This document shows, piece after piece, positions 11,345 to 31,502 of a stretch of 64,000 nucleotides of DNA (its first letter is position 1; each line of letters opens with the position of its first letter). Source of the DNA: an uncultured delta proteobacterium (lineage in GTDB: Bacteria > Desulfobacterota > Binatia > UBA9968); assembly GCA_963745835.1 (NCBI GenBank), contig CAVUZH010000013.1:1-64000 (forward strand), written 5' to 3'. Below the pieces are notes generated by a model. The model was given only the letters and a program-made list of their open reading frames with translations. It was not told the origin of the DNA and did no database searches. Made by a program: the position numbers and the translations under genes.

Positions 11345-11376
11345 GATTTCGAGATTTCCGAAACGTCGAAAATGAC
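11345..11376 (+). repeat. Site A palindrome (partial)
   Basis: TTTCGAGATTTCCGAAACGTCGAAAATGAC, in the same context as the copy at 12896. Confidence 0.7.
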
Positions 11377-11384
11377 AATTCGAG

Positions 11385-11674
11385 CACCTACCAGGACCTT
11401 GGAACACCTCTTGACGTGCCAAGAGATCCAAGCTTCATGAGGATAGTAGTTGGGGCGTTGCGGCTGTCGAATCTCCTTTCCGTGATATGCAACGACCCAT
11501 TCCTGAAATCCCCTCTTGCTCATCGGCCAGTGTTTTTCGGAGACGATGACGGACATGGAGTCGGAAATTGTAAACATGCCCCGGTCGAAAAGCTTGTGAT
11601 GGAGCGAGCACAGGGCGAGGCCGTTGCGCTCCTCGTCGGGACCGCCGGCTTGATGCCATTTGATGTGAGCGGCC
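11385..11674 (-). pseudogene. 3' fragment duplicate of the SBD-HNH endonuclease gene
   Basis: Aligns by eye with 12942-13230 (AAHIKWHQAGGPDEERNGLALCSLHHKLFDRG...). The 5' part is absent. Confidence 0.85.
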
Positions 11675-11820
11675 GTTGGGTCGTTTTAGCTGACCAACGA
11701 GCCCGAGCTTCTATCCGGACGTGATCGCAGTGTGCGGCCGAAGCTTAATCGGACGTCACGAATGTGAGTTATTTGGGAGGAACTCCCACGTTTCGAGAGT
11801 TCCCGAAACGTCGAAATGAG
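11671..11820 (+). repeat. ~290-nt array element, right half, ending in site A
   Basis: TTTTAGCTGACC...GTGCGGCCGA...TAATCGG...GTGAGTTAT...GGAACTCCCACGTTTCGAGAGTTCCCGAAACGTCGAAATGAG. Confidence 0.8.
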
Positions 11821-12042
11821 ACCGGCACTAGCGCCGCCCGTAGGCAGCAGACTTCTCTTGGACCAGGAACCCAATTTTCCTTCTTCTTCGGCTTCGGTCG
11901 TGGGGTAAAAAGGGCGTGGTCGTAATGGTCCGGCGAGATCCGTTTGGAAGGAAGGACTACTGTGAGGGTGATTGGAAACCCCTGCGGGGCAATTATCGCG
12001 TCTTGCTCGTAGGCAGAAAACCGCCGGGTTTCGAAGCCAGGT

Positions 12043-12255
12043 CTATTTGCTGCCAGTTAATTCTGCTTCAAACGGTCGCTCCTTGCGAAAACGGCTGACG
12101 CCGAGAATGCTGAACCCAACCACCTGTCCCTGCTCGTCGACTCGCTCCATCAACGCGTCATGGGTGGTTTCGCGCATAAAGCCGGGCACGTCGCTGAACC
12201 GTACTTCCAAAAAGTCGCCTTCAGGATCGAACCAAACTTTTACTTTTTCGGCCAT
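12043..12255 (-). CDS. DUF2283-like putative antitoxin
   Basis: VKVWFDPEGDFLEVRF...ERVDEQGQVVGFSIL; overlaps the upstream partner gene. Confidence 0.75.
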   Translation of the reverse strand: MAEKVKVWFDPEGDFLEVRFSDVPGFMRETTHDALMERVDEQGQVVGFSILGVSRFRKERPFEAELTGSK

Positions 12256-12551
12256 ACGATTTCTCCTGCTTTCACCGTATCCGTCAGGTATGCGGTAATG
12301 ACAAACGCGTCATCTGGCAAATACTTTACCACCACACACAACCATTTCCTACGCACTCGGGTTTGCGCGTAAAATTCGTAGAAGAGCCTTACGTCATCAT
12401 CGGAGCGCGACCGTCTCACCTCGCTCGGCACGCGCAATACCCGCTCAAGCTCGTCTTCCATGCCGGCCAGTTCGGCGTGTTCCAAAATATGCGCAAGTCG
12501 TTCGTCAGTAAGCCTGACTGATTGGCCAAAGCAATCCAGGATCACTTTCAT
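12240..12551 (-). CDS. Putative toxin, RelE/BECR-like nuclease fold (partner of DUF2283)
   Basis: VRLTDERLAHILEHAEL...WLCVVVKY...FVITAYLTD; two-gene TA layout. Confidence 0.65.
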   Translation of the reverse strand: MKVILDCFGQSVRLTDERLAHILEHAELAGMEDELERVLRVPSEVRRSRSDDDVRLFYEFYAQTRVRRKWLCVVVKYLPDDAFVITAYLTDTVKAGEIVWPKK

Positions 12552-12648
12552 AATCGCAAGATACGGCAGTGAGCAATTCGACGCAATCACTTCAGGTCGA
12601 AGCTCATCGTATCGAGACTAGGTCTGACGGAACGTGCTCATCGTCATC

Positions 12649-12937
12649 GGGTCAAGCGTGAGTTATTGAATTATTACGATAACTATTCACTTCGAGGATT
12701 TTCGAAGCGATTCCTCCGGGGGACGATCGCGGAAAGGGAACGCTTGAATACGCGCATTACGTCAGCCGATCGGCCGAATTTTGGCTGGTCTTTCTAGCCG
12801 ACCATAGGGAACCCGAGCCTTACCCGAACGTCGAATGCATTGTGCGGCGCGCAATCGGTGCTTATTTTCTGGAGAGGCGTAAGTTATACTGGTCGGGAAC
12901 TTCCACGTTTCGAGAATTCCCGAAACATCGAAATGAC
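12649..12937 (+). repeat. ~290-nt array element, full copy ending in site A
   Basis: Starts GGGTCAAGCGTGAGTTATTGA and ends GGAACTTCCACGTTTCGAGAATTCCCGAAACATCGAAATGAC, a few bases from the HNH stop codon. Confidence 0.85.
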
Positions 12938-12941
12938 AGTT

Positions 12942-13876
12942 CTAGTACCGACCAGGACCTTGGAATACCTCTCGGACGTGCCAGGAGATCCAATCTTCAT
13001 GAGGATAGTAGTTGGGGCGTTGCGGGGGTCGAATCTCCTTTCCGTGATATGCAACGACCCATTCCTGAAATCCCCTCGTGCCATTAGCGCTTTCGGAGAC
13101 AATGACTGACATGGAGTCGGAAATTGTAAACACGCCGCGGTCGAAAAGCTTATGGTGGAGCGAGCATAGGGCGAGGCCGTTGCGCTCCTCGTCCGGACCG
13201 CCGGCTTGATGCCATTTAATGTGAGCGGCCTCGACAGCGATCAGAATATTTCCGAGCCGAACATCGAAACCGCACACCGCGCAGCTGTATTCGTAGGCTC
13301 TGAGAACCCGCTCTCGAAATTCCGGATCGCGTGCAATCACGACCCGCGTATCCATTGAAAACTCTATTCCAACCGCATCCAGAATGTCGCGATGTATGGT
13401 CTCAGGAAAATGGGCGTCCAGTAGGTCCTGAACGATCTCGCGGGCGAGGCCATTGTTGCGCGAGAGTTCATCAAACACCTCGGCTGGAAAGCCTCCTTGC
13501 ACATTATTACTCAGCAAGGTTATTTTCGTCGGGCTGTTACTACCAGTCCGTTTCACGAGATCGCGAGTATCGCTCAACTCCCATAAGCCATCAGTCTGCA
13601 GATGCCAAAACGGAAATTCGGGGTGATAGGACTTCCTGCGAGGGCCGAACTCGATGAGAATTTGCGAAGATCGCGATCGACCTGGGCATACTCGATCATG
13701 CGCGGTTCGCCGCGCAGCGCCCGTCCAATGGCATAAAGCGCGAGCAACGGCTTATGCGGCGCCCTCTCCCCGCCTCTTTTCCAGACCGTGATCGCGTCGA
13801 ACTTTTCTTTGATTTCTGTCGGTGTCACTCGTCCTTCCGATTTTAAGATTGTTTCGTTTACTACGACTGAGAGCAA
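12942..13876 (-). CDS. SBD-HNH phosphorothioated-DNA-dependent restriction endonuclease-like protein (frameshift near 13575)
   Basis: N-terminal ERAPHKPLLALY and PFWHL (sulfur-binding domain type); C-terminal RDPEFRERVLRAYEYSCAVCG...EAAHI...NGLALCSLHHKLFD HNH domain. Confidence 0.8.
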
Positions 13877-14045: not shown

Positions 14046-14146
14046 CTGTAATTAATTGGCATGGCGAAAGGCTGGTTCAAACGTTCAACGGTTCGATGGT
14101 TCCGGCACGTTCACCATGAGCGGGATTGTACAACAATAGCCGGTCG

Positions 14147-14186
14147 GGAACTTCCACAATCGAGAATTTCCGGAACTAGCGAGTGA
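14147..14186 (+). repeat. Site A, degenerate, preceded by a GTTCMA tract
   Basis: GGAACTTCCACAATCGAGAATTTCCGGAAC. Confidence 0.6.
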
Positions 14187-14205: not shown

Positions 14206-14397
14206 CTATTTTGGATCTGGGATACCGAGCTGGCGGCAAATCTTGCGTGCGAGGAGGTCGGCGATTTCTATATGTCTTGGAACGGTGGTAATGCGGCGGG
14301 GATCGGCGAGATTGACGTACTTGCTATGTTTTGACCCCTCCTCAGCGAGCGCACATCCGAAGCGTTCCAAATGCCGGATGAGCTCGCGTCGTTTCAC
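14206..14397 (-). CDS. hicA: HicA family toxin
   Basis: MKRRELIRHLERFGC...EGSKH...TTVPRHIEIADLLARKICRQLGI. Confidence 0.92.
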   Translation of the reverse strand: MKRRELIRHLERFGCALAEEGSKHSKYVNLADPRRITTVPRHIEIADLLARKICRQLGIPDPK

Positions 14398-14598
14398 CTA
14401 CACCTCGAGTTGTTCGATCACAATTTTGTTTTTAGGTAGCTTAGAAAGATCAATCGGCTGGCGCATCAGTCGCACCGCATCTATGAGATTCTCCCGCGCC
14501 TCTTCCAATGAAGCCCCTTGTGTCAACGCGCCGGGAACATCATCTGTCCATGCAACCCACCATTTTCCGTCTTGAACAAAACTCGCTTGAATCTTCAT
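14398..14598 (-). CDS. hicB: HicB family antitoxin
   Basis: WWVAWTDDVPGALTQGASLEEARENLIDAV. Confidence 0.92.
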   Translation of the reverse strand: MKIQASFVQDGKWWVAWTDDVPGALTQGASLEEARENLIDAVRLMRQPIDLSKLPKNKIVIEQLEV

Positions 14599-14736
14599 AA
14601 AATCACCTCTTGACTGGAATATTACGCGAAACTGCAAACCGAAGCCAACCCGCGAGCACGTCGCCGCAGACACGATGCTCCGGGGGATAAGATAGGAACC
14701 AGTCGAAATAAGCAGGGGTCACGTCGAAATAAGCAA

Positions 14737-15050
14737 GGTCAGGCGTGAGTTATTGAGTCGTTTCCCCTGTAACTACCCCTCTGGGATTTTCGGAGCGATC
14801 TCTTTGCGAGGAACAACCCTCGGCAAGGAAGCTTTGAGCGCCTGAACATGAAGTGAGCCCCAACGACTGACCACACGCGCATTCCCTTAGCCGATGCCGG
14901 CCGGTTTGAGCTCCTTTTTTAGCTGACCCTACGGAACCTGAGCTTATTTGAAGGTGAGTGCAGCTTTGCAGCCGAGAGGTAATCGGGGGGCTGTGAGTTA
15001 TATGGGCCGAAACTTCAACGTTTCGAGAATTCCCGAAACATCGAAATGAG
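14737..15050 (+). repeat. ~290-nt array element, full copy ending in site A
   Basis: GGTCAGGCGTGAGTTATTGA...TTAGCCGATGCCGGCCG...TTTTTAGCTGACCC...GTGAGTTATAT...site A. Confidence 0.9.
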
Positions 15051-15110
15051 ACGCTGCCCCATCTCCTCGATTACCTCACTCTCCGCTTACAACTTTGACC
15101 CCTGGACACC

Positions 15111-15152
15111 TTTCACGTTTTCGCAATGCGAAAACATGATAACCATCGCTGC
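15111..15152 (+). promoter_or_regulatory. Site B palindrome plus first codons of a truncated ArsR gene
   Basis: TTTCACGTTTTCGCAATGCGAAAACATGATA followed by ACCATCGCTG. Confidence 0.7.
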
Positions 15153-15178
15153 TGGTCTCTGATTCCGCCTTGTTCTCG

Positions 15179-15508
15179 CTATGCGGCTCGGGGAGTGACG
15201 ATGATCCGAGATAGCTCCCGCTCGGATGCTCCAAGACTGATAAGAGATCGAATCAGCAAATCCAAGGAAACCGATGGATCGCCCGCTTCCATTTTGGCGA
15301 CGCGCGACTGGCTCGACTGAAGTTTCGCGGCGAGGTCCAGCTGTGACAAGCCTTGTTGCTGCCGGCGCTGTCTCAAACCTCCCGCCAGCTTAATCTTTAA
15401 GTCGATATAAGCCGACTCCTCGTCGGAGAGACGCAGAAATTCTTTGACCGTACCGATCTTCCAACCCTTCGCCTCCAAACGTTTTCTCTTTGGCTTACGC
15501 ATTCGCAT
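15179..15508 (-). CDS. XRE-family HTH antitoxin (HigA-like), copy 1
   Basis: KRKRLEAKGWKIGTVKEFL...GLSQLDLAAKLQSSQSRVAKMEAGDPSVSLDLLIR. Confidence 0.9.
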   Translation of the reverse strand: MRMRKPKRKRLEAKGWKIGTVKEFLRLSDEESAYIDLKIKLAGGLRQRRQQQGLSQLDLAAKLQSSQSRVAKMEAGDPSVSLDLLIRSLISLGASERELSRIIVTPRAA

Positions 15509-15801: not shown

Positions 15802-16318
15802 GAATGACAGCCAGTTCGGCATCTGAGAGGAACAAGACAGTTTAGGTCCGTCGAGGAGTTAATGACTTGTTTGTCGGTAACCACCCATCACGCCATCTTG
15901 ATCCTTGAAATAGTACCGCGGCACTTCGGAATTTTGTGCGGTTGACCCCGAATTGAGTCGAGCGAATAGCTTAAGACTCTTACGGGATCGGCCGAGGCTT
16001 CGATACCGGATATTGCACATCCAGACTTCAACGCACTGCTTTAGAGATCAGAAGCCGAGCGGGGGCTCCAGGGCTCGCGGAGTGGTGATGATCCGAGATA
16101 GCTTGCGGTCCTGTCGCGGATCGAACCGTTCCAATCCTTTCAGACGTTCCACCGCTTCGCTCCGTTCAGAACGTTAAAACCTGAAGACCGCTCGAAAGTT
16201 CAGGCGAACCCGTGACACGAACACGCCCGTCGCCGCTACCGGGTTCTTCGCTTCGTTTGCGATAGCCGTGGCTTATTTGCTACCAATTGTGAAACGAATT
16301 TGCGACGGAGTATCGAAG

Positions 16319-17056
16319 ATGAAACTCGCTGAACTTCACTGGCCGGAAGTTGAAAAGCTCGACAGAGAAAAAATAGTCGCCGTGATTCCGGTGGGCTCGA
16401 TGGAGCAACATGGCCCGCACCTGCCCTTTCAGGTCGATGTTTTTTGCGCGTCGCGTCTGGCCGAGGATCTCGAGCAGAAAATCCCGGACGTCCTGCTGGT
16501 GCCGTCGCTTTGGGCCGGTGTTTCGGCGCACCATATGGATTTTCCGGGCTCCATCACTTTGCGCGCCAGAGTCTTCATCGATCTTTTACATGACATCTGC
16601 GGTTCGCTACATCATCATGGCTTCCGCCGGATCGTGCTGTTAAACGGCCACGGCGGCAATCGCTCCAGCCTCGAAGTGCTGGGACAAGAACTCTTCGTCG
16701 AGTTAGGCCTGACCGTGAACACATTGGCTTATTGGGACCTGGTACCGGATTTGGTCAAGTCGCTCAAGAAAACCAAATCGAGCGGCATGGGTCACTCGGG
16801 CGAGCTCGAAACATCGCTGATGCTTTACCTCGCGCCCGAGTTGGTCGATCGGCAAGCTGTTCCGCAGGGAGTTCTCGGCATCGAACCGGCCGGCCCAACG
16901 AGCGGGATCAAACGTTACGTCAATATGAAGGAGCATTCGGCGCAAGGCGTAATCGGTATGCCGTCAGCGGGCACTCCGGAGATCGGCAAAGAGCTATACC
17001 ATGGCGCGCTTAGCGCGCTCGAGAAGGCGGTTCGCACCCTGCAATCTCATGATTGA
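16319..17056 (+). CDS. Creatininase family protein, copy 1
   Basis: PVGSMEQHGPHLP; SAHHMDFPGS; LNGHGGN; GHSGELETS. Confidence 0.93.
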   Translation: MKLAELHWPEVEKLDREKIVAVIPVGSMEQHGPHLPFQVDVFCASRLAEDLEQKIPDVLLVPSLWAGVSAHHMDFPGSITLRARVFIDLLHDICGSLHHHGFRRIVLLNGHGGNRSSLEVLGQELFVELGLTVNTLAYWDLVPDLVKSLKKTKSSGMGHSGELETSLMLYLAPELVDRQAVPQGVLGIEPAGPTSGIKRYVNMKEHSAQGVIGMPSAGTPEIGKELYHGALSALEKAVRTLQSHD

Positions 17057-17074
17057 TTCGAGCCCATCACTGCT

Positions 17075-18109
17075 TCATTTCTTGAAAAACTTTGCATACT
17101 TCTGAGTGAGCTGCTTGTAATCGCTTTCGCTGCGCTGGATCTCTTCGACGAATTTGATTTTATCGGCGTCTTTCAAGGGCGGATGAACACCGCGTAAATT
17201 GACGAACTCGCAATCCTTAGCGAGCGCTTCCATGCTCTCTCGGCTGTACCAATGGTCGATCCATAATTTGGCCGCGTTGACATTTGTCGACCTGGAGCCG
17301 ATCGCGATGTAGTTGCTTTCTCCCAGATACGCGGGCAAACGCACGTAATCCAAAGGCGCGCCGACTTTTCCCATATCGCAAACATATTTAATGTAAGCGA
17401 TGCCGAGCGGCTTCTCGCCGTTGGCGATGCTTTCCACCGCCGGAGTCAGCGAGCGGTGCAGCAGCGGGCGGTTCGACGCCAGGCGCTGAATGTATTCGTC
17501 CTCTTGGGTTTTATCACCCAACACCAAGTGCAGACTGGAGAGCCATTTAGCCATGGACGTATGCGAGGTCGGATCGGACATGGTGGTCTTGCCGTCCCAT
17601 TTTGGGTCGACATAGTCCCAGTAGGATTTCGGCGCGTCCGACGGTTTGATATAGCGGGTATTGTAGACAAAGCCGATAATCGAGCTACGATAATTAGGGC
17701 TATAGAAATCGTGATGAGATCCAGAATCGAAGTTCTTGGCCGCCGGCGTTTGATACTTGAGAAACATTCCCTCGTTTCTCATTATCTCCATGGCATCGAC
17801 GCCGGTGAAGAAAACATCCCAAGTAACTTTGCCGGTGCGGAATTCATTGATAGCGCGATCCATCACCGCGGTCGTTGATGCACGCCAGTAGACGCTTTTG
17901 ACGTCGGGATATTTTTTGTCGAAGCTCGCCTGGATTTCCTTCATCACTTCGTCTTGGAGAGAACCAAAAATAGTGACTTTGCCCTCCTTTCGCGCGGCCT
18001 CGATAAGCGCTTTATCCTGGCTGTTAGCCGAGCGAGAAAGAACGAGCATCAACAGCGAAAACAAGGCACAGACCAAAATCACTCTCCGCTGAAGTGTGCT
18101 CTTATTCAT
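17075..18109 (-). CDS. ABC transporter extracellular solute-binding protein (Fe3+/thiamine/polyamine-like family)
   Basis: Signal peptide; AARKEGKVTIFGS; YNTRYIKPSDAPKSYWDYVDPKWDG; NAAKLWID. Confidence 0.9.
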   Translation of the reverse strand: MNKSTLQRRVILVCALFSLLMLVLSRSANSQDKALIEAARKEGKVTIFGSLQDEVMKEIQASFDKKYPDVKSVYWRASTTAVMDRAINEFRTGKVTWDVFFTGVDAMEIMRNEGMFLKYQTPAAKNFDSGSHHDFYSPNYRSSIIGFVYNTRYIKPSDAPKSYWDYVDPKWDGKTTMSDPTSHTSMAKWLSSLHLVLGDKTQEDEYIQRLASNRPLLHRSLTPAVESIANGEKPLGIAYIKYVCDMGKVGAPLDYVRLPAYLGESNYIAIGSRSTNVNAAKLWIDHWYSRESMEALAKDCEFVNLRGVHPPLKDADKIKFVEEIQRSESDYKQLTQKYAKFFKK

Positions 18110-18295: not shown

Positions 18296-18572
18296 GGGTC
18301 AGGCGTGAGTTATTGACTTATTTCCTTTGCGATAGCCAGTTTGGAATTTTCGGCCCGATCTCTTTCCGGGAACGACTGCGGTAAGGAAGCTTGAGTACCT
18401 GATCATTGAGCCCGAACAAATGACGAGAACGTGCATTACGTTAGCCGATCCGCCGGATCTGAGCTCGTCTTTTTTAGCTGACCCTACGGAACCTGAGCTG
18501 ATTTGAGCGGTGACGCAGCGTGCAGCCGAACGAGTAATCGGAGGTCACGGGTGAGTTATATGAGCGGAATTC
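18296..18572 (+). repeat. ~290-nt array element, full body (site A displaced ~90 bp downstream)
   Basis: GGGTCAGGCGTGAGTTATTGA...GCATTACGTTAGCCGAT...TAATCGGAGGTCACGGGTGAGTTATAT. Confidence 0.9.
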
Positions 18573-18659: not shown

Positions 18660-18802
18660 GGAACTTCCACGTTTCGAGAATTCCCGAAACGTCGAAATGA
18701 GAGCGCTGCCCCATCTCCTCCGAACCTCACTCTCCGCTGACAACTTCGGCCCCTGGGTTTTCACGTTTTCGCAATTGCGAAAACATGATAGGCATCGCTG
18801 CC
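18660..18802 (+). repeat. Site A, conserved linker, site B and ArsR 5' stub
   Basis: GGAACTTCCACGTTTCGAGAATTCCCGAAACGTCGAAATGAG...TTTCACGTTTTCGCAATTGCGAAAACATGATA. Confidence 0.85.
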
Positions 18803-23839: not shown

Positions 23840-24163
23840 CTAAAGCTCTACCCGGAGCAACTCGCCCGAGCGGCTTTTCGCAATAGCCGCCAGCAGACTT
23901 GGGACAAGAGGAATGAGATCCTCAAGCGCATTGCTGGGTGCAATGAGCAGGATGATTCCGATACGTGATTGTGAGAGGTTTTGTTGAAACTCTAGATTGC
24001 GATCCGCGGTGACTAGAACCTCAAAACCCGCGGCCGCAGCAACACGAAGTAGCTCGCCGTTCTGAAGCCCGGCCCACCCGCGCTGCTGAACAGTGCTGAC
24101 ATCGTGCCCACCGATTTCTCTGGCGAGGTGACGCGGCAGTTGTTCATCGAGCAGCACGTGCAT
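23840..24163 (-). CDS. DUF5615 PIN-like toxin
   Basis: MHVLLDEQLP...GHDVSTV...GWAGLQNGELL...VLVTADRNL. Confidence 0.9.
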   Translation of the reverse strand: MHVLLDEQLPRHLAREIGGHDVSTVQQRGWAGLQNGELLRVAAAAGFEVLVTADRNLEFQQNLSQSRIGIILLIAPSNALEDLIPLVPSLLAAIAKSRSGELLRVEL

Positions 24164-24371
24164 CGGCCGTCAAAACTTCGTGCGCGTTTTCGAGAACGGC
24201 GATCGCCTGTTCTTTGGAGACTGTAGGGAACGCATCAAGAAACTCATCGATACCGTGTCCACGCTCGAGATAGTCAAACAGGTTTCGCAGAGGAACGCGC
24301 GTGCCGACGAACACCGGAGTCCCTCCCAGGATTTCCGGGTCGCTATGCACTACCGAAAGTCTTTTAGCCAT
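24144..24371 (-). CDS. DUF433 antitoxin
   Basis: DPEILGGTPVFVGTRVP...IDEFLDAFPTV. Confidence 0.93.
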   Translation of the reverse strand: MAKRLSVVHSDPEILGGTPVFVGTRVPLRNLFDYLERGHGIDEFLDAFPTVSKEQAIAVLENAHEVLTADARAAR

Positions 24372-24500
24372 AAAAGCTCCGTTGAGAACATACCTCCGAC
24401 CTTGCGCTTAACAATATATCCTATGCTCAGCGGCCCTCCAACTGTTCGAAAGAACGAGGCGTAATCTTGGATGACGGAACGAAGGCAACAGCACCCGCAC

Positions 24501-24807
24501 GGGCTCAGCCGTCAGTTATTGAGTTTTCCAACTGCAACTATCCGCTTCCGGATTTTCGGAGCGATCTCCTTCGGCGAACAACCTCGGCAAGGAAGGGCAA
24601 CATAAATTGAGCCATAACGAATAACGACAACCGCATTACGTTAGCCGATGCCGGCCGGATTGGGGTTCGTTGTTTTTAGCTGAGCCTGGCGAACTGAGCT
24701 ATCGAAACGCTGAGCGCAGTGCGGCCGAGGGGATAATCGGAGGTGGGTGCGAGTTATATGCGCCCGAACTTCCATGTTTCGAGAATTCCCCGAAACCTCG
24801 AAATGAG
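24501..24807 (+). repeat. ~290-nt array element, full copy ending in site A
   Basis: CAGTTATTGA...TTTTCGGAGCGATCTC...GCATTACGTTAGCCGATGCCGGCCG...GAGTTATATGCGCCCGAACTTCCATGTTTCGAGAATTCC. Confidence 0.9.
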
Positions 24808-24829
24808 AGACAAACCTGCGAGGGAAACT

Positions 24830-25078
24830 CTAACTCGCTTGAGCTAAAGGCTCTTGGTTTTGAATAACGATTTTGGGATTCGGGTTTTCGTTAGGGACCG
24901 GTAGCGATTGTTTTTTTAGCAGCTCGAGATGTTCCTCCATACCCCACCTGGCTTGATAAACGCAGTCTTCAATAGAGTGACCGATGCCGGTAAACCCTTC
25001 GAGATCCGGCGAGTAAAAGCCAAAAAACGTTGGATCATCCGTCGCTTCGATTACCAACGAATATTTTAGATCAATCAC
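24830..25078 (-). CDS. hicB: HicB family antitoxin (orphaned)
   Basis: YSLVIEAT...FYSPDLEGFTGIGHSIEDC...LPVP. Confidence 0.82.
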   Translation of the reverse strand: MIDLKYSLVIEATDDPTFFGFYSPDLEGFTGIGHSIEDCVYQARWGMEEHLELLKKQSLPVPNENPNPKIVIQNQEPLAQAS

Positions 25079-25092
25079 GGTACTTCTCCTCA

Positions 25093-25138
25093 CTATCGCT
25101 TCAAACCGGCAGCTTTCAGAATGGCGTTGCAAGTTCCC
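25093..25138 (-). pseudogene. C-terminal remnant of HicA toxin
   Basis: GTCNAILKAAGLKR* is a typical HicA ending and lies just upstream of hicB. Confidence 0.7.
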
Positions 25139-25284
25139 GTCGGGAAAGCCGTTCCTATTTAGTCAACGGTAACTTTTATGCCATTCAAATTGAACGACCG
25201 CTTTTGCAATTACAATTCTCTTGCTGGATTTCGCGAGAGAATGATACGAGTCTCAAGTCGTAACTTGTTCTTCTCGCCCGATGC

Positions 25285-25497
25285 TCAGGAGACTTTGCTG
25301 GCGTGGTGCTTGCGGACTTCTTCGAGCAATTCATCTACATTGAATTGCGAAAAATACTCCCGCCGCCATTCCTGATAGTCGAAAGGCTCGCGGGAAACCA
25401 ACGCGAGAAAACGCAACGCATCGACAGGGCCCAAGCTCTCGCTCAATGCCTGAACAGCCTGACGCCGCAACTCGTTTTCGGAAAGTTTTTTAGCCAT
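25285..25497 (-). CDS. Small putative antitoxin downstream of a PIN gene
   Basis: ELRRQAVQALSESLGPVDALRFL...FDYQEWRR; overlaps the PIN stop codon. Confidence 0.7.
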   Translation of the reverse strand: MAKKLSENELRRQAVQALSESLGPVDALRFLALVSREPFDYQEWRREYFSQFNVDELLEEVRKHHASKVS

Positions 25498-25699
25498 TGC
25501 CTGCCACCTCCTGCAAGTATGCCACAGGGTTAAGAACCCGTAAACTCAGGTCGAGGCGCCTGGCTCGTCGCACCATTATGTCATCACAGGTCAATACGAC
25601 TTCGGCGCCACCAATTTCCGCCGCTGCCAAATGCGCCGCATCCAAGGCGAGAATCCCCTGTTGCGCAAATTCCCGAGAGATCCCGCCAGACGTTTTCAA
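25490..25699 (-). pseudogene. 5'-truncated PIN-domain toxin
   Basis: LDAAHLAAAEIGGAEVVLTCDD...VLNP is the C-terminal half; no N-terminal D-T motif is present. Confidence 0.75.
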
Positions 25700-25782
25700 G
25701 AGTTATGCAAGGGATCGATCGACCACACTGCCGCATCTCTTCATTGGCCTTATCTCGGATTACAACTTTGACCCTGGACACC

Positions 25783-25827
25783 TTCCATGTTTTCGCAATT
25801 GCGAAAACATGATAAGCATCGCTGCCA
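25783..25827 (+). promoter_or_regulatory. Site B plus ArsR 5' stub
   Basis: TTCCATGTTTTCGCAATTGCGAAAACATGATAAGCATCGCTGCC. Confidence 0.75.
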
Positions 25828-25851
25828 GTCCCTAATTCCGCCTTGTTCTTG

Positions 25852-26181
25852 CTACGCCGCTCGGGGTGTGACGATGATGCGAGATAACTCCCGCTCGGAG
25901 GCTCCAAGACTGATAAGCGATCGAATCAGCAAATCGAGGGAAACCGATGGATCCCCTGCTTCCATCTTGGCCACACGCGATTGGCTCGACTGAAGTTTCG
26001 CGGCCAGGTCCAGCTGTGATAAGCCTTGTTGCTGCCGGCGCTGTCTCAAACCTGCCGCCAGCTTAATCTTTAAGTCGATATAAGCCGACTCCTCGTCGGA
26101 AAGACGCAGAAATTCTTTGACGGTGCCGATTTTCCAACCCTTCGCCTCCAAACGTTTTCTCTTTGCCCTACGCATTCGCAT
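25852..26181 (-). CDS. XRE-family HTH antitoxin, copy 2
   Basis: Protein nearly identical to 15179-15508. Confidence 0.9.
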   Translation of the reverse strand: MRMRRAKRKRLEAKGWKIGTVKEFLRLSDEESAYIDLKIKLAAGLRQRRQQQGLSQLDLAAKLQSSQSRVAKMEAGDPSVSLDLLIRSLISLGASERELSRIIVTPRAA

Positions 26182-26439
26182 AATCCTTCAGGTCGTTTTT
26201 ACCAGGCTGTTGAAAAAGCCCATCTACTTCGTTGCGCTCCATCGCCTCGCTCCAACGTACACCGGAGTACGCTTCTGCTCGTCGGTTGAGTCGCGCGCCT
26301 CGTATTTGAACATTTTTAATCAGCCTGAAGAGATTGCGCAGTGAAGCAAAAACCCCGCTTCCAACCTGGCTGTCGACGAGAATGGTGGGGTTTTAATTTC
26401 CCCCTGCAGCCAAACGAGCGGTTTATCTTCCGAGGTCAA
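26168..26439 (-). pseudogene. RelE/Gp49-like toxin disrupted by MITE, copy 2
   Basis: KPLVWLQGEIKTPPFSSTARLEAGFLL followed by the MITE at the same position as in copy 1. Confidence 0.75.
26203..26327. mobile_element. ~125-bp MITE-like element
   Basis: Near-identical to 15530-15653. Confidence 0.8.
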
Positions 26440-26494
26440 CAATCTAACTGTATGTCAAATATGACATGTCGTCAAGGAATATCAACGGATAGCG

Positions 26495-26756
26495 ACGTTA
26501 GCCGATGCCGGTCGGATGTTGGCTCTTTTTTTTAGCTGACCCTGCAGAACCTGAGTTTATTTCAACGGTGTGCGCAGCGTTCGGCCAAGGGGTGATCGGC
26601 GGTCAGGGCTGTAACTTATCTGCGCGGGAACTTCCACGTTTCGAGAATTCCCGAAACGTCGAAGTGAGAGCACTCTCCCATCTTCATGGCCTCACTCTTC
26701 GCTGACAACTTTGACCCTGCATACTTTCACGTTTTCGCAATTGCGAAAACATGATA
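26495..26756 (+). repeat. ~290-nt element right half, site A, linker and site B
   Basis: ACGTTAGCCGATGCCGG...TTTTTAGCTGACCC...site A at 26627-26668...site B at 26725-26756. Confidence 0.88.
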
Positions 26757-27070
26757 ACCATCGCTGCCGTGGAAGAGATCACCTATAGGCAATCGCGGCT
26801 GTGTCGTCTGCTCGGCATCCGGTGGCGTTTGCCGTAGTCGCCTTGCTCACCAACGGTAAAGACCTGAGCACCAGTGAGATAGCAAAGGCTATCGGCCGGA
26901 GCGTACCGCGCACGAGCAATATCTTGGGCGCGTTGAGGCTTGCCGAGTTAGTGCGCTATGAGACCGAAGGGAGATACGCGCGTTATCGACTGAAACATCC
27001 GCGCCCGATACGGAGAATTCTCGAGGCGCTTTCCGAGTTTGTAAAAACCACATCTGTGGCGCCCGGTTGA
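26751..27070 (+). CDS. ArsR-family regulator, full-length copy with a 1-nt frameshift near 26815
   Basis: Nearly identical to 20910-21230. Confidence 0.8.
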
Positions 27071-27134
27071 TCGCAACCCGTTCAAAGTTCAACGGTTCAA
27101 CAGTTCAATGGCAGACGGGAACTTCAGCGAAAAG

Positions 27135-27395
27135 TTATTTTTCTAGACCTAGACGCCGGCGCAGTTCGCTGGCCGAGATGGCGCCCTGTTTTTTAACGCG
27201 GTTTCTGGAGCGCTCGATAATAGCTACAAATTTGCGGCTCATACTGAGCGCTATAGTTTCCTCATCCGCGTTGCGGAGCGGAATCACAGCCGCGAACGGC
27301 TTGCCCCGTTTGATTACGATGACCGGATCTTTTCTTGCCTTTTCTGCATACTCGGAAAGTGGCCCGGACGTTTTTTTGAATTCAACTTTTGTCAT
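27135..27395 (-). CDS. Phd/YefM-like antitoxin (orphaned)
   Basis: LSEYAEKARKDPVIVIKRGKPFAAVIPL. Confidence 0.8.
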   Translation of the reverse strand: MTKVEFKKTSGPLSEYAEKARKDPVIVIKRGKPFAAVIPLRNADEETIALSMSRKFVAIIERSRNRVKKQGAISASELRRRLGLEK

Positions 27396-27445
27396 AATTT
27401 GATTGTCTCTCCGCCGATCCGCACCCGGCCCTTCTCTTTAATGCC
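27392..27445 (-). pseudogene. C-terminal remnant of a RelE-like toxin
   Basis: GIKEKGRVRIGGETIKL*, with its stop codon overlapping the antitoxin ATG (ATGA). Confidence 0.65.
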
Positions 27446-27492
27446 ATGCCTCCGCTTCGGCGAAACGAGCGTTACAGCGTCGACCGACTCGT

Positions 27493-27756
27493 CTAACCTG
27501 ACGCGCTGACCTCAAGTTCTTCAATGCGCGACCGAATGGGTTGAATGCGCTTGATCTTCACGTACACAATCCGCTGTTCTTTTTCAGCTTGGCGTTGTGC
27601 GCCTTCTTGACTCCACCGATTAAATTCTTGATCCCCTTCAACCAACATAGCCACCAATGCATTCTCTGGAATCCGTTCGGCGAAATCCGGGTGCTCCCGA
27701 ACATACCGGTCAAATTCAGTGACAAGCTCGGCATTTTTCTGCTCGAAAACATTCAT
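27493..27756 (-). CDS. DUF5647-like protein
   Basis: EQKNAELVTEFDRYVREHPDFAERIPENA. Confidence 0.72.
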   Translation of the reverse strand: MNVFEQKNAELVTEFDRYVREHPDFAERIPENALVAMLVEGDQEFNRWSQEGAQRQAEKEQRIVYVKIKRIQPIRSRIEELEVSASG

Positions 27757-28066
27757 GGATAATCTCCTCTTAGAAAGCGCTGTTGGTAAATATCCCAATT
27801 GTCGTTTATGTCTTTGTCCGCGAGATCCAGAGACTCAGCGTAACTCAACGCGATCTCTTGCTTGTCCTGATCACCCTTTAAGTTGTACCGATCACGATGA
27901 GCGAAGTCGTGGGCGCAATCGTACCAATCACCGGCTTCCAAACCCCTTCTTCGACTTCCACTTCCAGCTGCAACGTGAACGTGAGTAGAGTCCCTTTATC
28001 AGTTTTGTGATGATGGCGCTTTCGTGCATGTTCACCAAGACGAATGAGGTATTCCTTTTCAGCCAA
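27753..28066 (-). CDS. Small partner protein of DUF5647 (putative toxin), frameshift near 27925
   Basis: RKRHHHKTDKG...FTLQLEVE...WKPV / YDCAHDFAHRD...DINDNWDIY. Confidence 0.65.
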
Positions 28067-28180
28067 GAGTTATCCGCTTTCCTGATGTTAGCATTGTCGG
28101 ATTATACGCTGCCTCTATCTGAGGCTCAATCTGACATCTAAACCGCCGCGGGCAATCTATGTCCGCACGGTCATCGGGCC

Positions 28181-28420
28181 GTCAGGACGTGACTTATTGA
28201 CTCGTTTCCGTGTAACTATCCCTTCGAGAATTTTCGGATCGACCTCCTTCGGGGAACAAAGTGGCAAGCGAACTTTGAGCGCTGAATAGAATTTGAGCCC
28301 TCACGAATGACGACGCGCATTGCATCCAGCCGATGTCGGCCGACTTTGGGCTCTCGTTTTTTTAGCCGACCCGAGGACCCTGAGCTGATTTGAGCGGTGA
28401 GCGCAGCGTGCGGCGAGGAA
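28181..28420 (+). repeat. ~290-nt array element lacking its right end
   Basis: GTCAGGACGTGACTTATTGA...TTTTTAGCCGACCC...CTGAGCTGATTTGAGCGGTGAGCGCAGCGTGCGG. Confidence 0.82.
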
Positions 28421-28485
28421 TGGACGCTTCCAAGTTTCCACGAGGCGTCGCTAATGGCCGACTCTCGACCAATGATAAGATAGAA

Positions 28486-28710
28486 GCCGTTCCAAAGGTT
28501 TCACAGGTTCCAGCGGTTCCAAATGGCGAACCGTTCCACCACTGCGCTCTCCTCCGGATCGAGCCGTTCCGATCGTTCCAGTAGTTCCATCGCTACGCTC
28601 CGTCCAAAACGATGAGCTCGCAGGCTGTTAGAGGGTTCAAAGTTCAACGGTTCAACTGTTTAGCTACCGACGGGGCAATTCAGTTTCGAGAATTCGCGAA
28701 CGTGAAAACG
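28486..28710 (+). repeat. GTTCMA tract followed by degenerate site A
   Basis: GGATCGAGCCGTTCCGATCGTTCCAGTAGTTCC...GTTCAAAGTTCAACGGTTCAAC...GTTTCGAGAATTCGCGAACGTG. Confidence 0.7.
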
Positions 28711-28722
28711 ACTGGAGTAAAG

Positions 28723-29142
28723 TTATGACCGAGGGGGAAGGATGGTGAAGCGACCGATTCGAGACGGGCGATAAACTTGAAAGTCGCGACGATCCAAGGT
28801 GAAGATGCGGCGCAGCCGTTCGCGCTCGGCGACGCGCACCAACCCCGCATCCGCAAGGTCCATCGGCAGATCTCGGTACTTGCGCATCAGCTCTCTGATG
28901 CGCGGGATATCATCGATGTCTAGCGAAAGTATCTGAACGGCCCCGGACTGAATCATTTCCCAGAGCGCATCCTGGGCTCGCCAGTAGGCTCTTAACATAG
29001 ATATGGCCTCCGTCACGACCGGCCATACGGTAACCAGCGAATCGTCCAGCGAACTGAAAGTCTCTTGACAGCTGAGGTGATAGGGATCACTTCGGTCCAG
29101 CAAGGCCACCAGTGGCCCCGTGTCAACGAGAACGGCGGGCAC
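28723..29142 (-). CDS. vapC: VapC PIN-domain toxin
   Basis: VLVDTGPLVALL...WPVVTEA...MDLADAGLV...IFTLDRRDF. Confidence 0.92.
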   Translation of the reverse strand: MPAVLVDTGPLVALLDRSDPYHLSCQETFSSLDDSLVTVWPVVTEAISMLRAYWRAQDALWEMIQSGAVQILSLDIDDIPRIRELMRKYRDLPMDLADAGLVRVAERERLRRIFTLDRRDFQVYRPSRIGRFTILPPRS

Positions 29143-29181
29143 GAGCCCTCTCCCGCAAGAGCTTCGCAAATTTTTCGCCGG
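29122..29181 (-). pseudogene. C-terminal remnant of the cognate antitoxin
   Basis: TGEKFAKLLRERARARRSR* overlaps the vapC start; no N-terminal part is present. Confidence 0.5.
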
Positions 29182-29295
29182 TCCAAACTTAAACCTGGGC
29201 AGTTCGAATTGGTCCATCGACGCGTTCCGTCCTCGAAGATCGCTGCCGTTTAAGGTTCAAACGTTCAACCGTTCAACGACAGATAAGTCAGATTG

Positions 29296-29337
29296 GGAAC
29301 TTGCACGTTTCGAGAATTCCCGAAACGTCGAAATCAG
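29296..29337 (+). repeat. Site A after a GTTCAA tract
   Basis: GGAACTTGCACGTTTCGAGAATTCCCGAAACGTCGAAATCAG. Confidence 0.85.
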
Positions 29338-29380
29338 ATGCCAAGGAGTCGACTGTCAGCTCTTTCTCAGTGATAATCTT

Positions 29381-29776
29381 CTAGGACGGGAAGTGCTCGA
29401 CTATGACTTGACCGACCTTCTGATAGTGCGCATCTGTGGTGAGTATCTGAAGACCATGTTCCATGGCACTGGCGGCGATCCAAATATCGTTAGTGGGGAT
29501 CGGAGTTCCCGCTTTCCAGAGAGAATTCAGAATAACCCCGTATCTCTCGGCGGTTTCCTCCGTCACGTCGACAACATTGACTCGCGGTGAGCTAAGAAAT
29601 CGGCTAAGCTCTTCTTGGTTTCTGGCTCGTCGCCGGCCCTTGATAAACCCGGCCGCAAGCTCCCCGAGAACAATCGCGTTTACGACGATTTCGTCGGCCC
29701 GTTGCAGGCTAGTCTTGATAGCAGCATGACCCCGCATAAATGCTGAATAGGCAGAAGTATCGAGCAAAAGGCGCAT
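29381..29776 (-). CDS. vapC: VapC PIN-domain toxin
   Basis: LLLDTSAYS...IVLGEL...PIPTNDIWIAASA...LTTDAHY. Confidence 0.94.
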   Translation of the reverse strand: MRLLLDTSAYSAFMRGHAAIKTSLQRADEIVVNAIVLGELAAGFIKGRRRARNQEELSRFLSSPRVNVVDVTEETAERYGVILNSLWKAGTPIPTNDIWIAASAMEHGLQILTTDAHYQKVGQVIVEHFPS

Positions 29777-30033
29777 TACTTCCAGAGCTCAGGATCAATC
29801 GTCCGTTGCGCCGCCAAGGCTTTGTCAAAATCTGCGGCTTCCTTTTTGGACCACGATCCCGCCAAGCTATCGAGGTCCTCATGAACAGTTAATCGATTTT
29901 TACTCCGTACTGTGGCACGATTCTCCAGAAGACTAATGACCGCCTTATTGATGCTTGTCCCTTTACGATTGGCTTCCTGACGAATAGCTTTCGCCAGTTT
30001 TGCTGGAAGCTTTCTCAATGTTACGACTTTCAT
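29776..30033 (-). CDS. VapB/FitA-like antitoxin
   Basis: VTLRKLPAKLAKAIRQEANRKGTSINKAVISLL...DLDSLAGSWS. Confidence 0.85.
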   Translation of the reverse strand: MKVVTLRKLPAKLAKAIRQEANRKGTSINKAVISLLENRATVRSKNRLTVHEDLDSLAGSWSKKEAADFDKALAAQRTIDPELWK

Positions 30034-30229
30034 GGATTCCCTTCATGCAGCATGATGCAGCAGTCTGCTGCAATATAGCAAAAGTCCCTATGCTCGCAAA
30101 GAGCACGCTGGAATACCCGCGACTTTCAATTCCCGCTTCACAGATCAGGAGCCAAGTCTGCGCTATGCGGCTTGAGGATTGTTGATGATATCAGACAGCT
30201 CCCGGTCGATGCTCCGCTATAGGCAAGAG

Positions 30230-30416
30230 AGGTTCCAATGGTTCAAATCGTTCACCGCTTCGCTCTTCACTGGATCGAGCCGTTTCCAATCGTTCCAGAC
30301 GTTCCACCGCTTCGCTCCGTTCCAATCGTTTTCAGTCGTTCAACGTTCAACAGTTCAATCGTTCAACGAAAGAGAGGAACTTCCATGTTTCGAGAATTCC
30401 CGAAAGGTCGAAATGA
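30230..30416 (+). repeat. GTTCMA tract followed by site A
   Basis: Many GTTC(C/A)A units, then GGAACTTCCATGTTTCGAGAATTCCCGAAAGGTCGAAATGA at 30376. Confidence 0.85.
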
Positions 30417-30572
30417 TAGTCATTCAATTCAGCTGTAGCGTGAACCACCGCCAGCGGATCGAGCCGTTCCAGTCGTCCCAGTAGTTCCACCGCTAGCGCT
30501 GTTCCAGTTGCTTCAAACGTTCAAGAATGGATTCGGGCGTAGCCTCCACATGCTGGGCAATTCTCGAAACAT

Positions 30573-30863
30573 TTAACGATAGCTGCTTCGGCGAAGGAGG
30601 GCTCTGATCTCGTTGTGGTTGCCGAGAAAGGAAACAAAAAGCTCCGCGCCTCGGTCTTGAAAGATAAATCGCAGATCGCGGTTGCCGCGGCATTCGAAGA
30701 GCTTGCCGCCTAATTTGCGGATCCCCAAGCCGCTGTGCACATGGGGCTGGCCAAAGCCGTCCACTAAATCACATAGAGCAAGCAGGCACTCTACCCTTTC
30801 GTTCTTTGGCAATTCGCGCAGGCGGCGGATAACGGTGGGGTCGATGGCAAGAAGCTTACTCAA
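30573..30863 (-). CDS. RelE-like toxin
   Basis: FGQPHVHSGLGIRKL...FECRGNRDLRFIF...FLGNHNEI. Confidence 0.7.
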   Translation of the reverse strand: MSKLLAIDPTVIRRLRELPKNERVECLLALCDLVDGFGQPHVHSGLGIRKLGGKLFECRGNRDLRFIFQDRGAELFVSFLGNHNEIRALLRRSSYR

Positions 30864-31134
30864 GCATCTTCCTAAGCTCTCCAGTGGTTACCGAAATAAG
30901 CTTTCTACCCCGTTTCAAGCGTCGATACCGCTGGTCGGTGGCTTTCTCCAGGGCGGCGACCTGCTCGGGCAGAGCGCCATACTCCCGCTGAGCGTAATCG
31001 GTGGACTCGACCTCGACCTTCCTGAGTGCGACGATATCAGAACCGCAAACGATGCCGATATCTTCGCCCCGCGCCGCAGCGGCGAGCCATCGTCCGAGAT
31101 TCTTCTTAGCATCGGTAATCGTTAAAGTCTTCAT
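30856..31134 (-). CDS. Phd/YefM-like antitoxin
   Basis: MKTLTITDAKKNLGRWLAAAARGEDIGI. Confidence 0.8.
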   Translation of the reverse strand: MKTLTITDAKKNLGRWLAAAARGEDIGIVCGSDIVALRKVEVESTDYAQREYGALPEQVAALEKATDQRYRRLKRGRKLISVTTGELRKMLE

Positions 31135-31140
31135 AAAGAC

Positions 31141-31169
31141 TTTATATAGGCGATAAAAGAACTTGTCAA
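31141..31169 (-). promoter_or_regulatory. Sigma70-like promoter, leaderless
   Basis: TTGACA-17 bp-TATAAA, 6 nt before the ATG at 31134. Confidence 0.65.
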
Positions 31170-31314
31170 TACTGCCGAATCATGGTTCCAGATGCAAGGC
31201 CACTTCAACAGTTCAACGAGAGACCGTTAGGAGCGGACAGCGCGGCGCTTGAGTTCCGAGGCTGTCGAGGAATCACCGCTCAGCAGAATGATCTACAACC
31301 TAATAACCGGAGTG

Positions 31315-31344
31315 GCAACTTCCACGTTTCGGAATTCCCGAAAC
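31315..31344 (+). repeat. Site A (partial)
   Basis: GCAACTTCCACGTTTCGGAATTCCCGAAAC; the ~70-nt upstream leader is shared with 37615-37680. Confidence 0.75.
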
Positions 31345-31502
31345 CCTCTGACCGCGTATGAATCTGCCGTTTTCCAGTCAACTGTGCGCGCGAGTTTCCA
31401 ACAAAAAGACATACGAGCAGCTTGTTCCAGACCGCCAGCCTGACGAAGTCACATCTTAACTGTCAATGAGAGGAACTGGTGCGAGGCGGTGAAGAAAATG
31501 TC

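Follow-up and report, generated by a model that had tools for sequence, protein, structure and literature searches.

An integron-like array of small gene modules on a non-attC hairpin site, apparently independent of integrons, in an uncultured Binatia genome

Introduction

Integrons are, to our knowledge, the only well-understood system that stockpiles gene cassettes, promoter-bearing or promoterless, behind hairpin sites. The first 64 kb of contig C13 (CAVUZH010000013.1) of an uncultured Binatia genome, termed here the window, contains an array of small genes with an integron-like layout on a different and much more conserved site, a hairpin termed site A. The genome has 7,276,699 bp in 25 contigs, with an estimated completeness of 97.1% and an estimated contamination of 9.33%. 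The locus raises the question of whether gene cassettes accumulate at site A and, if so, whether the integron integrase (IntI) or another enzyme is involved. A first-pass annotation of the window had proposed a cassette platform that uses a site other than attC and an enzyme supplied in trans. The best reading of the data presented here is that of an integron-like, integron-independent array that is typical of the host's Binatia family.

Results

Gene modules and site A in the window

Pfam scans of the open reading frames (ORFs) show about 18 small modules between 11.3 and 31.3 kb (Table 1). In 13 of these, located at 12.0-30.0 kb, a toxin or antitoxin domain scores above the curated Pfam cut-off, and the adjacent small genes with such domains mark these 13 as predicted type II toxin-antitoxin (TA) modules. 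About five further modules have sub-threshold Pfam matches or none, i.e. HicB-like, a PIN fragment pair (25285-25699), Phd-like pairs (one at 27135-27395) and winged helix-turn-helix genes. The first-pass description of about 20 kb of small TA modules from many families is borne out, as is its HNH nuclease (HNH_2, Table 1). Two features were absent from it: creatininase and solute-binding-protein genes lie inside the array, and several modules are on the + strand, with others on the minus strand.

A repeat search gave a 41-nt family with 11 copies in the window. An nhmmer profile built from ten window copies (threshold E ≤ 0.01) detects 19 distinct sites in the whole genome. Fourteen are within 26.4 kb (window 11347-37722), each scoring best on the + strand, and the other five consist of three at C13:707.5-710.4 kb, one on C5 and one on C22. 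Because 14 of the 19 genomic copies cluster in this region, site A is neither a chance match nor a repeat that is spread genome-wide. The repeat system extends to 37.7 kb, about 6 kb past the end first given for the array.

Site A copies in the window lie 2-45 nt past minus-strand stop codons. The first-pass annotation had pointed to a conserved, co-oriented repeat near stop codons, and the five stops that it quoted (12942, 14206, 24830, 28723 and 29381) indeed each have a site A copy 2-42 nt to their left, in degenerate form in two cases (14142 and 28683). The satellite copies elsewhere in the genome include ones placed after an NMT1-type gene and after a gene for an AMP-binding enzyme.

Sequence and folding of site A

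Site A is a 44-nt element with the consensus GGGA.ACTTCCACGTTTCGaGAATTCtCGAAACGTCGAAATGA (184 unique copies from named public genomes, centred on the palindrome). Its edges are sharp, i.e. the information content in a logo of the 184 copies falls to zero on both sides, and its primary sequence is about 90% conserved across genera. The core has a 16-bp stem and a 4-nt loop, and two stem positions are mismatched (C.C in 136 of 184 copies, C.A in 132 of 184). With these two fixed mismatches site A has a direction. GTTCAA-type motifs in the 46 nt beside the site number 92 on the left and 2 on the right, read on the site strand (184 sites).

An alignment of 140 copies shows 92.3% of stem cells to be paired. 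Cells changed on both sides of the stem number 57, as against 28.5 ± 3.7 in column shuffles, with none of 500 shuffles reaching the observed value, and the covariation score is 0.135 versus 0.099 in shuffled alignments and 0.036-0.070 in slid-partner controls; as the copies are related by descent, these figures overstate their independence. Because of the compensatory changes in the stem, selection for a folded single strand at site A is favoured over a plain duplex binding site. Folded as single-stranded DNA, the window copies give -7.3 to -12.3 kcal/mol (z -0.8 to -3.5).

The commonest double change, C-G to T-A, produces a variant termed A2 (TTTTGA...TCAAAA stem). A2 and standard (A1) stems coexist within single arrays, and an A2 copy often has a co-oriented standard copy 50-120 nt away (L099, L163, L129, L132 and other loci).

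No described family matching site A was found by Rfam search: Rfam 15 gave no match at the gathering score over the window and none at E ≤ 5 over positions 11000-38500. The exact site A core also had no match in a viral contig collection.

Site A arrays in other Binatia genomes

Of 24 further genomes of the family, 22 were found to have site A, and of 16 genomes of two sister families none (counts that include the unpublished genomes G012 and G018; the IntI and winged-helix counts given below include G012). Locus L014, from G012, was also among the loci compared for cassette recurrence and co-orientation. The exact core occurs in at least 111 public-genome stretches, almost all of them titled Binatia or "Deltaproteobacteria" metagenome-assembled genomes.

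Position and orientation were surveyed for 200 sites in 110 named loci, with 185 sites scorable. An ORF of at least 60 aa ends no more than 60 nt upstream (in gene direction) of 42% of the 185 sites, compared with 15% for mirrored orientation and 15% for random places, and many of the real distances are below 10 nt. Co-orientation is complete in 30 of the 36 loci that have three or more copies. The arrangement by which integrons and clusters of attC sites lacking integron-integrases (CALINs) are recognized, co-oriented cassettes with the site 3′ of the ORF, is found here.

One example is genome G077, which is assembled in 7 contigs. It has 22 co-oriented copies across C2:1,244,648-1,268,964, a 24-kb array, with small minus-strand ORFs between the copies as well as an IS110 transposase, an IS256 transposase and a pyruvate:ferredoxin oxidoreductase gene. 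DUF4007/AAA genes flank this array on one side, and TctC and amidohydrolase genes on the other. At a locus from another genus (L021), HEPN, AbiEi/AbiEii, Zeta-toxin and DUF7718 modules are situated between site A copies.

Over the 111 loci, the commonest large neighbours are solute-binding proteins (NMT1/PhnD type, 14 of 111 loci, the most frequent) and amidohydrolases. The amidohydrolase_2, solute-binding-protein and 574-aa protein families (window 31503-37302, and many contigs) are highly paralogous, with 14-19 matches per genome, and in several genomes members of these families are again found next to site A. Type I restriction-modification genes (HsdR, HsdM) adjoin site A satellites or arrays at L028 (G000:C13:705371-707323, in the present genome) and at 5 of the 111 named loci; the arrays therefore sit in defence-island-like regions.

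Comparison with canonical integrons

No match to IntI (TIGR02249) exceeds the 265-bit cut-off in the whole genome; the best scores 86.1 bits (contig C14), and the IntI proteins of relatives score about 470 bits. Canonical attC sites (GYCTAACG...GTTAGSC, 49-99 nt) lie beside the relatives' IntI genes. A covariance model, R1, was built from 16 attCs of the family. It picks up attCs of relatives' arrays outside the training set and gives 28 matches at E ≤ 1 elsewhere in this genome. In the window it gives no match with default filters; with filters off, the best match is 14.8 bits (E 0.15) at positions 41140-41200, which is not at site A. A search of 100 site-A loci, 653,593 nt in total, with R1 was also negative at E ≤ 0.01. 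A crude scan for an R box plus fold found no attC in the window versus 17 in the relatives' IntI loci. The initial impression that neither attC nor IntI is visible is upheld by these searches, and the repeats are neither attC sites by the family model nor, as noted above, an Rfam family.

Site A has no RYYYAAC/GTTRRRY boxes, and its GTT and AAC triplets are in opposite order on the hairpin. No site A, and no copy of a second palindrome of the window (site B, see below), lies within 20 kb of IntI in six relatives, and none of the 111 site-A loci contains IntI. The site-A arrays and the family's canonical integrons lie physically apart. In the literature searched, no paper was found that links Binatota with integrons.

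Canonical attC clusters are present elsewhere in the genome, and IntI gene fragments are near them (Table 1). These clusters are CALINs or decayed integrons and are separate from the site-A array. Because the lineage also has ordinary integrons, both systems can be compared within one genome.

Variation between genomes

Cassettes of the window recur in other Binatia genomes with 72-95% DNA identity and in a different order; locus L105, for example, has relatives of five window modules in another order. Homologous cassettes often keep site A in the other genomes (24766-25144, 29305-29572 and 30378-31236). Comparison of relatives, which the first-pass annotation had suggested, gives a content that is variable and reordered between genomes and not a fixed one.

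Three genomes of the same genus show three different contents to the left of one amidohydrolase gene. In the present genome, a Phd-like cassette, an arm with a partial site A, and a solute-binding-protein gene are found there. In G005 a Phd-like pair (94% DNA match) directly adjoins the amidohydrolase gene. In G006 a GTTCAA arm, one site A copy and a PIN gene in truncated form take this place. Left of there, the G006 contig shows synteny with another contig of the present genome, and G006 passes into other DNA at 33053. For both the segment missing in G005 (31244-33165) and a 198-nt segment absent from G006 (37608-37805), the start is no more than about 10 nt from that of the same ~75-nt arm located before site A. 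The expectation that breakpoints would fall at the repeats holds in part: these two segments start at an arm-plus-site-A element, and several junctions are at gene ends or about 75 nt off. The left flank of the array (1-11340) gave nothing beyond a 37-nt match in four congeners.

The stretch 21900-31400 is also found in soil, rhizosphere and winery metagenomes, with word shares of 0.41-0.86 (17 DNA runs, 7 studies). Small parts of it (shares of 0.06-0.11) are also present in three RNA runs. The repeats are points at which metagenome contigs break, and in some contigs the cassettes are joined in a different order (sides of less than 30 nt and uncovered parts were ignored). Contigs diverge left of 30284, i.e. 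before the repeat element, in four of four runs, and behind it at 18697 and 29345.

Search for an enzyme

Enzyme genes near site A were sought by tblastn with 15 recombinase/transposase queries, by all-against-all comparison of neighbours in 11 loci, and by clustering of neighbours in 111 loci with Pfam assignment of the top ten clusters. No recombinase encoded at the arrays was found by these searches. Of the recombinase and HUH genes whose co-occurrence with the repeats was in question at the outset, none could be tied to site A: over the 111 site-A loci (728,587 nt) a Y1 transposase occurs in one, a tyrosine recombinase in one and IntI in none.

Of the 12 Y1_Tnp matches in the genome, the nearest is separated from a site A copy by about 4 kb. 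Site A flanks no Y1 gene in this genome, and at 1 of 111 loci Y1 genes are not enriched near site A. One serine recombinase locus is on contig C24, far from any site A, and several tyrosine recombinases are on other contigs. A search for Y2 (IS91-type) transposases gave no match, but control genomes were equally silent. Two dif-like sites of the usual form are on contig C3 (Table 1), and the Xer recombinases therefore have a cognate site unlike site A. Xer/dif as a simple reading was rejected: site A lacks the ATAA-N6-TTATG core, the dif-like sites lie elsewhere, and the site A copies are co-oriented. Neither IntI nor XerCD in the way it works on dif is a probable candidate for the enzyme. The Y1 (HUH) transposase paralogs can be named as candidates, as a guess.

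Discussion

A possible cassette platform

The reading that we favour, to which we give slightly less than an even chance, is that the array is an IntI-independent cassette platform whose hairpin site is used by a candidate enzyme supplied in trans; recombination at site A is what we infer. The unit of such a platform would be one or two small genes, mostly a self-regulated TA pair, with some units carrying a solute-binding protein or other accessory gene. Each unit would end in site A a few bases past the stop codon, usually followed by a GTTCAA-rich arm. Site A may be read strand-specifically, probably as folded single-stranded DNA like attC, and units would be gained, lost and rearranged through a recombinase or transposase whose gene lies elsewhere in the genome. 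This could yield one main array per genome and a few satellite copies. Of the original proposal, the TA-rich non-attC array with variable content stands; its recombination step and its enzyme do not have the same standing, as no recombination at site A was seen and no enzyme was linked to it.

A broader and distinctly more tentative proposal is that Binatia may have a second cassette system parallel to integrons, a new class of platform, in which site A (with A2 and the GTTCAA-rich arms) is recombined by a non-IntI host-encoded enzyme, possibly one of its numerous domesticated Y1 HUH paralogs, into arrays of TA, defence and solute-binding-protein genes.

Like sedentary chromosomal integrons and CALINs, the array has small co-oriented cassettes, often TA modules, with a 3′ hairpin site that displays conserved asymmetric features; its content varies in close relatives, and there is one main array per genome. 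A CALIN needs no integrase in cis. Unlike attC, site A is 44 nt long with about 90% conservation across genera, has no R or L boxes and is missed by the family attC model; it is never beside IntI in the loci examined, and the spacers adjoining it are long and heterogeneous. There is also a likeness to the pdif modules of Acinetobacter plasmids and to integrative mobile elements exploiting Xer (IMEX), which are small modules, often TA, with short palindromic bounds, and for whose movement a host recombinase with its gene at another place is responsible; the core of site A can also be put in the form 11-6-11. In contrast to pdif sites, which alternate, site A copies are co-oriented, and they have no ATAA-N6-TTATG dif core.

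Several observations weigh against a cassette platform, in addition to the common descent of the aligned copies and the near absence of enzyme genes from the 111 loci. No recombination product, excised circle or hybrid site was seen. The two segments that differ between congeners start about 75 nt from the palindrome, not in it. The 198-nt indel has no cargo and fits a small mobile element; its ends show CACTG/CAGTG-like bases and a duplication of at most 1-2 nt, in a single case. A small mobile element is likewise consistent with A1/A2 doublets 50-120 nt apart, which make up 20 of the 123 same-orientation neighbour pairs. The DUF2283 gene is 95% identical in L170, where the flanks are unrelated beyond the ribosome-binding site and the stop codon. 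DUF5647 and DUF5615/DUF433 are separate cassettes in L152, each with site A, and the window pair shares one. Of the alternative joints in metagenome contigs, the two with the best support are at gene ends without site A: one connects 23789 with 15178 (side of 140 nt), the other 25501 with 20087 (side of 76 nt). The arms adjoining site A are heterogeneous (composite, GTTCAA repeats, 75-nt arm), and non-TA genes (solute-binding proteins, an acyl-CoA synthetase) also precede the site.

If site A is a recombination site, an undescribed enzyme-site pair exists to be found, and the arrays would offer a route to how TA and defence islands assemble in abundant uncultured soil bacteria. If it is instead REP-like or a 3′ RNA signal, it would still be a class-wide marker of Binatia accessory-gene islands that is useful for annotation.

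Other explanations of site A

Site A with its arm may be a non-autonomous element of the repetitive extragenic palindrome (REP)/bacterial interspersed mosaic element (BIME), palindrome-associated transposable element (PATE) or miniature inverted-repeat transposable element (MITE) type, moved in trans, e.g. by a Y1 HUH enzyme, and with a preference for settling directly downstream of accessory genes, in an otherwise ordinary island of defence or addiction genes. The repeats would then decorate the island, and may aid homologous shuffling, rather than define cassettes. We consider this unlikely, though a serious alternative. The cargo-less 198-nt segment, the placement of site A after non-TA genes as well, and the 12 Y1_Tnp matches are in keeping with it. 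So are the doublets (all less than 130 nt apart): L099 has two near-identical ~150-nt A1-A2 units. An IS200/IS605-type PATE would be bounded by two similar subterminal hairpins in direct orientation, with a Y1 TnpA in the genome; the 20 doublets, however, show both orders, A2-to-A1 in about 13 and A1-to-A2 in five or six. Metagenome contigs diverge on both sides of a ~140-nt element, at the points given above. A mismatched hairpin after stop codons resembles what we take to be typical of REPs; with REP/BIME and PATEs, site A shares a short imperfect extragenic palindrome with fixed mismatches, lineage specificity, and copies that are cargo-less or in doublets in a genome with Y1 transposase genes. 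REPs, however, typically have hundreds of dispersed copies, whereas site A has about 19 per genome, three quarters of them in one array, and is co-oriented rather than alternating. Unlike the genes of REP-associated tyrosine transposases (RAYTs), no Y1 gene is flanked by site A or enriched near it. Neither clear terminal inverted repeats nor a clear target duplication is seen at the 198-nt indel, and homologous cassettes often carry their own site A between genomes.

Less probable still is that site A acts as a lineage-specific 3′ RNA stem-loop or a protein-binding insulator, which would set transcript end or stability, or block read-through, and would spread together with genes. Its position directly 3′ of stop codons in the orientation of the genes, the compensatory changes that keep the stem, and the lack of a nearby recombinase are consistent with such a role; the next start codon is 300-550 nt away, so that site A belongs to the upstream gene. 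On the other hand, there is no U tract after the hairpin on the gene strand, and the hairpin is modest in stability (-7 to -12 kcal/mol as DNA, with the z values given above). A terminator needs neither two conserved mismatches nor about 90% sequence conservation across genera, some copies have no gene attached, and with about 19 copies per genome site A is not a general terminator.

A reading as a true CALIN or decayed integron, in which the family IntI still acts on site A as an atypical attC, appears remote. In 28 of 61 family genomes an IntI match exceeds the cut-off, and this genome has IntI fragments and canonical attC clusters elsewhere, with one canonical attC 2.7 kb from the satellite site A on contig C22. 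A further point in its favour is a 36-40-nt CTAACG..CGTTAGCC hairpin within the type I composite repeat of the window (see below), to which the family attC model gives 10-11 bits and which resembles a collapsed attC. Against this stand the results of the R1 searches in the window and in the 100 loci, the lack of R and L boxes, the reversed GTT/AAC order, and the separation of site A from IntI in the six relatives and the 111 loci; furthermore, 11 genomes of the family have site A and no IntI match at E ≤ 1e-30.

An assembly artefact, i.e. repeats collapsed or mis-joined in a metagenome-assembled genome, is very improbable: the contamination estimate, the position of the array 11 kb from a contig end whose first 9 kb hold broken genes, and public contigs that break at repeats and do not span the cassette order would be compatible with one, but the stretch is present in 17 DNA runs from 7 studies, its unique cassette parts are found with 99-100% identity in contigs of four runs from four studies, and the same layout recurs in dozens of independently assembled genomes.

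Other features of the locus

The coordinates of the features are given in Table 1.

Table 1. Features of the array and related sites (window positions unless a contig is named; site A scores are from nhmmer)
Feature	Position	Strand	Evidence or remark
Site A, partial, leftmost; left arm replaced by unrelated sequence; left boundary of array	11347-11375	+	20.9 bits
Site A	11779-11822	+	56.0 bits; repeat family D1
Site A, 2 nt left of HNH stop 12942	12896-12940	+	57.8 bits
Site A, degenerate, 24 nt left of HicA stop 14206	14142-14182	+	71% copy, family D1
Site A, followed by site B 15093-15153	15010-15052	+	53.3 bits; families D3, D6
Site A, top score, followed by site B 18742-18802	18660-18704	+	61.8 bits; single-stranded DNA fold -9.8 kcal/mol
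Site A at right end of type I composite	22242-22286	+	55.8 bits; alignment
Site A, degenerate, downstream of DUF5647 gene	23266-23298	+	22.4 bits
Site A, 21 nt left of stop 24830	24766-24809	+	53.8 bits
Site A, followed by site B 26708-26768	26627-26670	+	59.2 bits; fold -12.3 kcal/mol, z -3.5
Site A, degenerate, left of PIN stop 28723	28683-28715	+	Fuzzy match; 94% core copy, family D9
Site A, 42 nt left of PIN stop 29381	29296-29339	+	55.7 bits
Site A after GTTCAA/GTTCCA-rich arm (30230-30375)	30376-30420	+	56.0 bits
Site A, partial, without right flank, after ~75-nt arm; 3′ of solute-binding-protein gene 31503-32531, which lies to its right	31317-31344	+	27.6 bits
Site A, degenerate, after GTTCAA-rich arm; beyond range of first-pass annotation	36093-36120	+	23.9 bits
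Gene-less 198-nt segment with site A (37680-37722)	37608-37805	+	blastn, junction sequences; absent from congeneric G006
Segment specific to this genome (arm, partial site A, solute-binding-protein gene)	31244-33165		Missing at same place in G005
DUF2283 gene (12043-12255) and 116-aa gene without Pfam assignment	12043-12590	-	Pfam
HNH_2 nuclease (12942-13577) and 100-aa gene without assignment	12942-13876	-	Pfam
HicA toxin and HicB-like antitoxin (DUF1902, sub-threshold)	14206-14673	-	Pfam
HTH_3 (XRE) gene	15179-15508	-	Pfam; duplicate 25852-26181
Non-TA genes inside array: creatininase 16268-17056 (+), solute-binding protein 17075-18109 (-)	16268-18109		Pfam
RelE-like (sub-threshold) and HTH_3 pair	19083-19584	+	Pfam
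DUF4258 toxin and MqsA/YgiT-like antitoxin	20099-20676	-	Pfam
Unstab_antitox and ParE pair	21388-21896	+	Pfam
PIN (VapC) and VapB pair	22376-23023	-	Pfam
DUF5647 gene (23445-23807), then DUF5615/DUF433 pair (23840-24371), no site A between	23445-24371	-	Pfam
HicB-like gene 24830-25132 (sub-threshold), 70-aa gene, 69-aa PIN fragment	24830-25699	-	Pfam
DUF5647 (27493-27798) and DUF7718 (27878-28066) pair	27493-28066	-	Pfam; 84% DNA match to L021
PIN gene (164 aa, 28723-29217), then PIN and FitA-like ribbon-helix-helix pair (29381-30033)	28723-30033	-	Pfam
Phd-like (sub-threshold) gene and 96-aa gene without assignment	30573-31134	-	Pfam
Type I composite repeat, ~330 nt with its site A	14737-15009	+	Alignment
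Type I composite, other copies	12650-12895, 18297-18569, 21967-22241, 24505-24765; partial 26498-26626, 28181-28407		
Site B, perfect 20-bp palindrome, ends 3 nt before ATG of winged-helix gene	20867-20927	+	Family D6
Site B, six copies	15093-15153, 18742-18802, 19924-19984, 20867-20927, 25766-25826, 26708-26768		Repeat family D6
Canonical attC clusters	C14:3210-7482, C14:589594-596347, C3:1338091-1339766, C18:527615-532884, C13:135512-136918		R1
IntI gene fragments near attC clusters	C14:9668-9790, C14:588399-588479, C18:529140-529265		
dif-like sites, GTCTGATAA-N6-TTATGT(T/A)AACT	C3:2231 (+), C3:1067398 (-)		First is 2.2 kb from contig end

The left neighbours of site A in the window are of three kinds, a ~330-nt composite, a run of GTTCAA/GTTCCA 8-mers, and the ~75-nt arm. 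Copies of the composite (type I) have about 75% identity to each other, and it was seen in this genus only. The arm copies at 31253-31344 and 37617-37710, each including site A sequence, show an 83% match.

Site B resembles site A in outline. The winged-helix gene that follows it has an intact form (20910-21230), a shorter one (26801-27070) and a remnant (19967-20095); site B is probably this gene's own operator. Distant winged-helix homologs sit between two site A copies in other genera. The winged-helix protein was considered as a site-binding factor and rejected: homologs are present in 13 of 24 family genomes and in none of 7 congeners, 6 of which have site A. Because the gene is absent from congeners that have site A, it is not required.

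The first ~6 kb of the window are GC-poor (0.44-0.47), and the first ~9.5 kb hold gene fragments only, e.g. of an FMN-dependent dehydrogenase (4637-5110, 5423-5695), an HMG-CoA reductase (5858-6256, 6591-6941) and an SNF2/ResIII helicase (8731-9534). Positions 1-9600 look like decayed or poorly assembled DNA at a contig end. GC skew is positive over the first ~11 kb of C13 and negative over the remaining 919 kb, the sign changing at the left end of the array. A replication terminus was not called at this point, as there is only about 11 kb of odd DNA on the left side.

Three recent internal duplications with 90-93% identity were found: 15051-15802/25725-26476, 20851-21232/26688-27072 and 11347-11674/12908-13230. 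The duplicate HTH_3 gene sits within the first of these (750 nt, 93%). The homology of the third begins within site A, and a truncated copy of the HNH 3′ end is present at 11275-11577.

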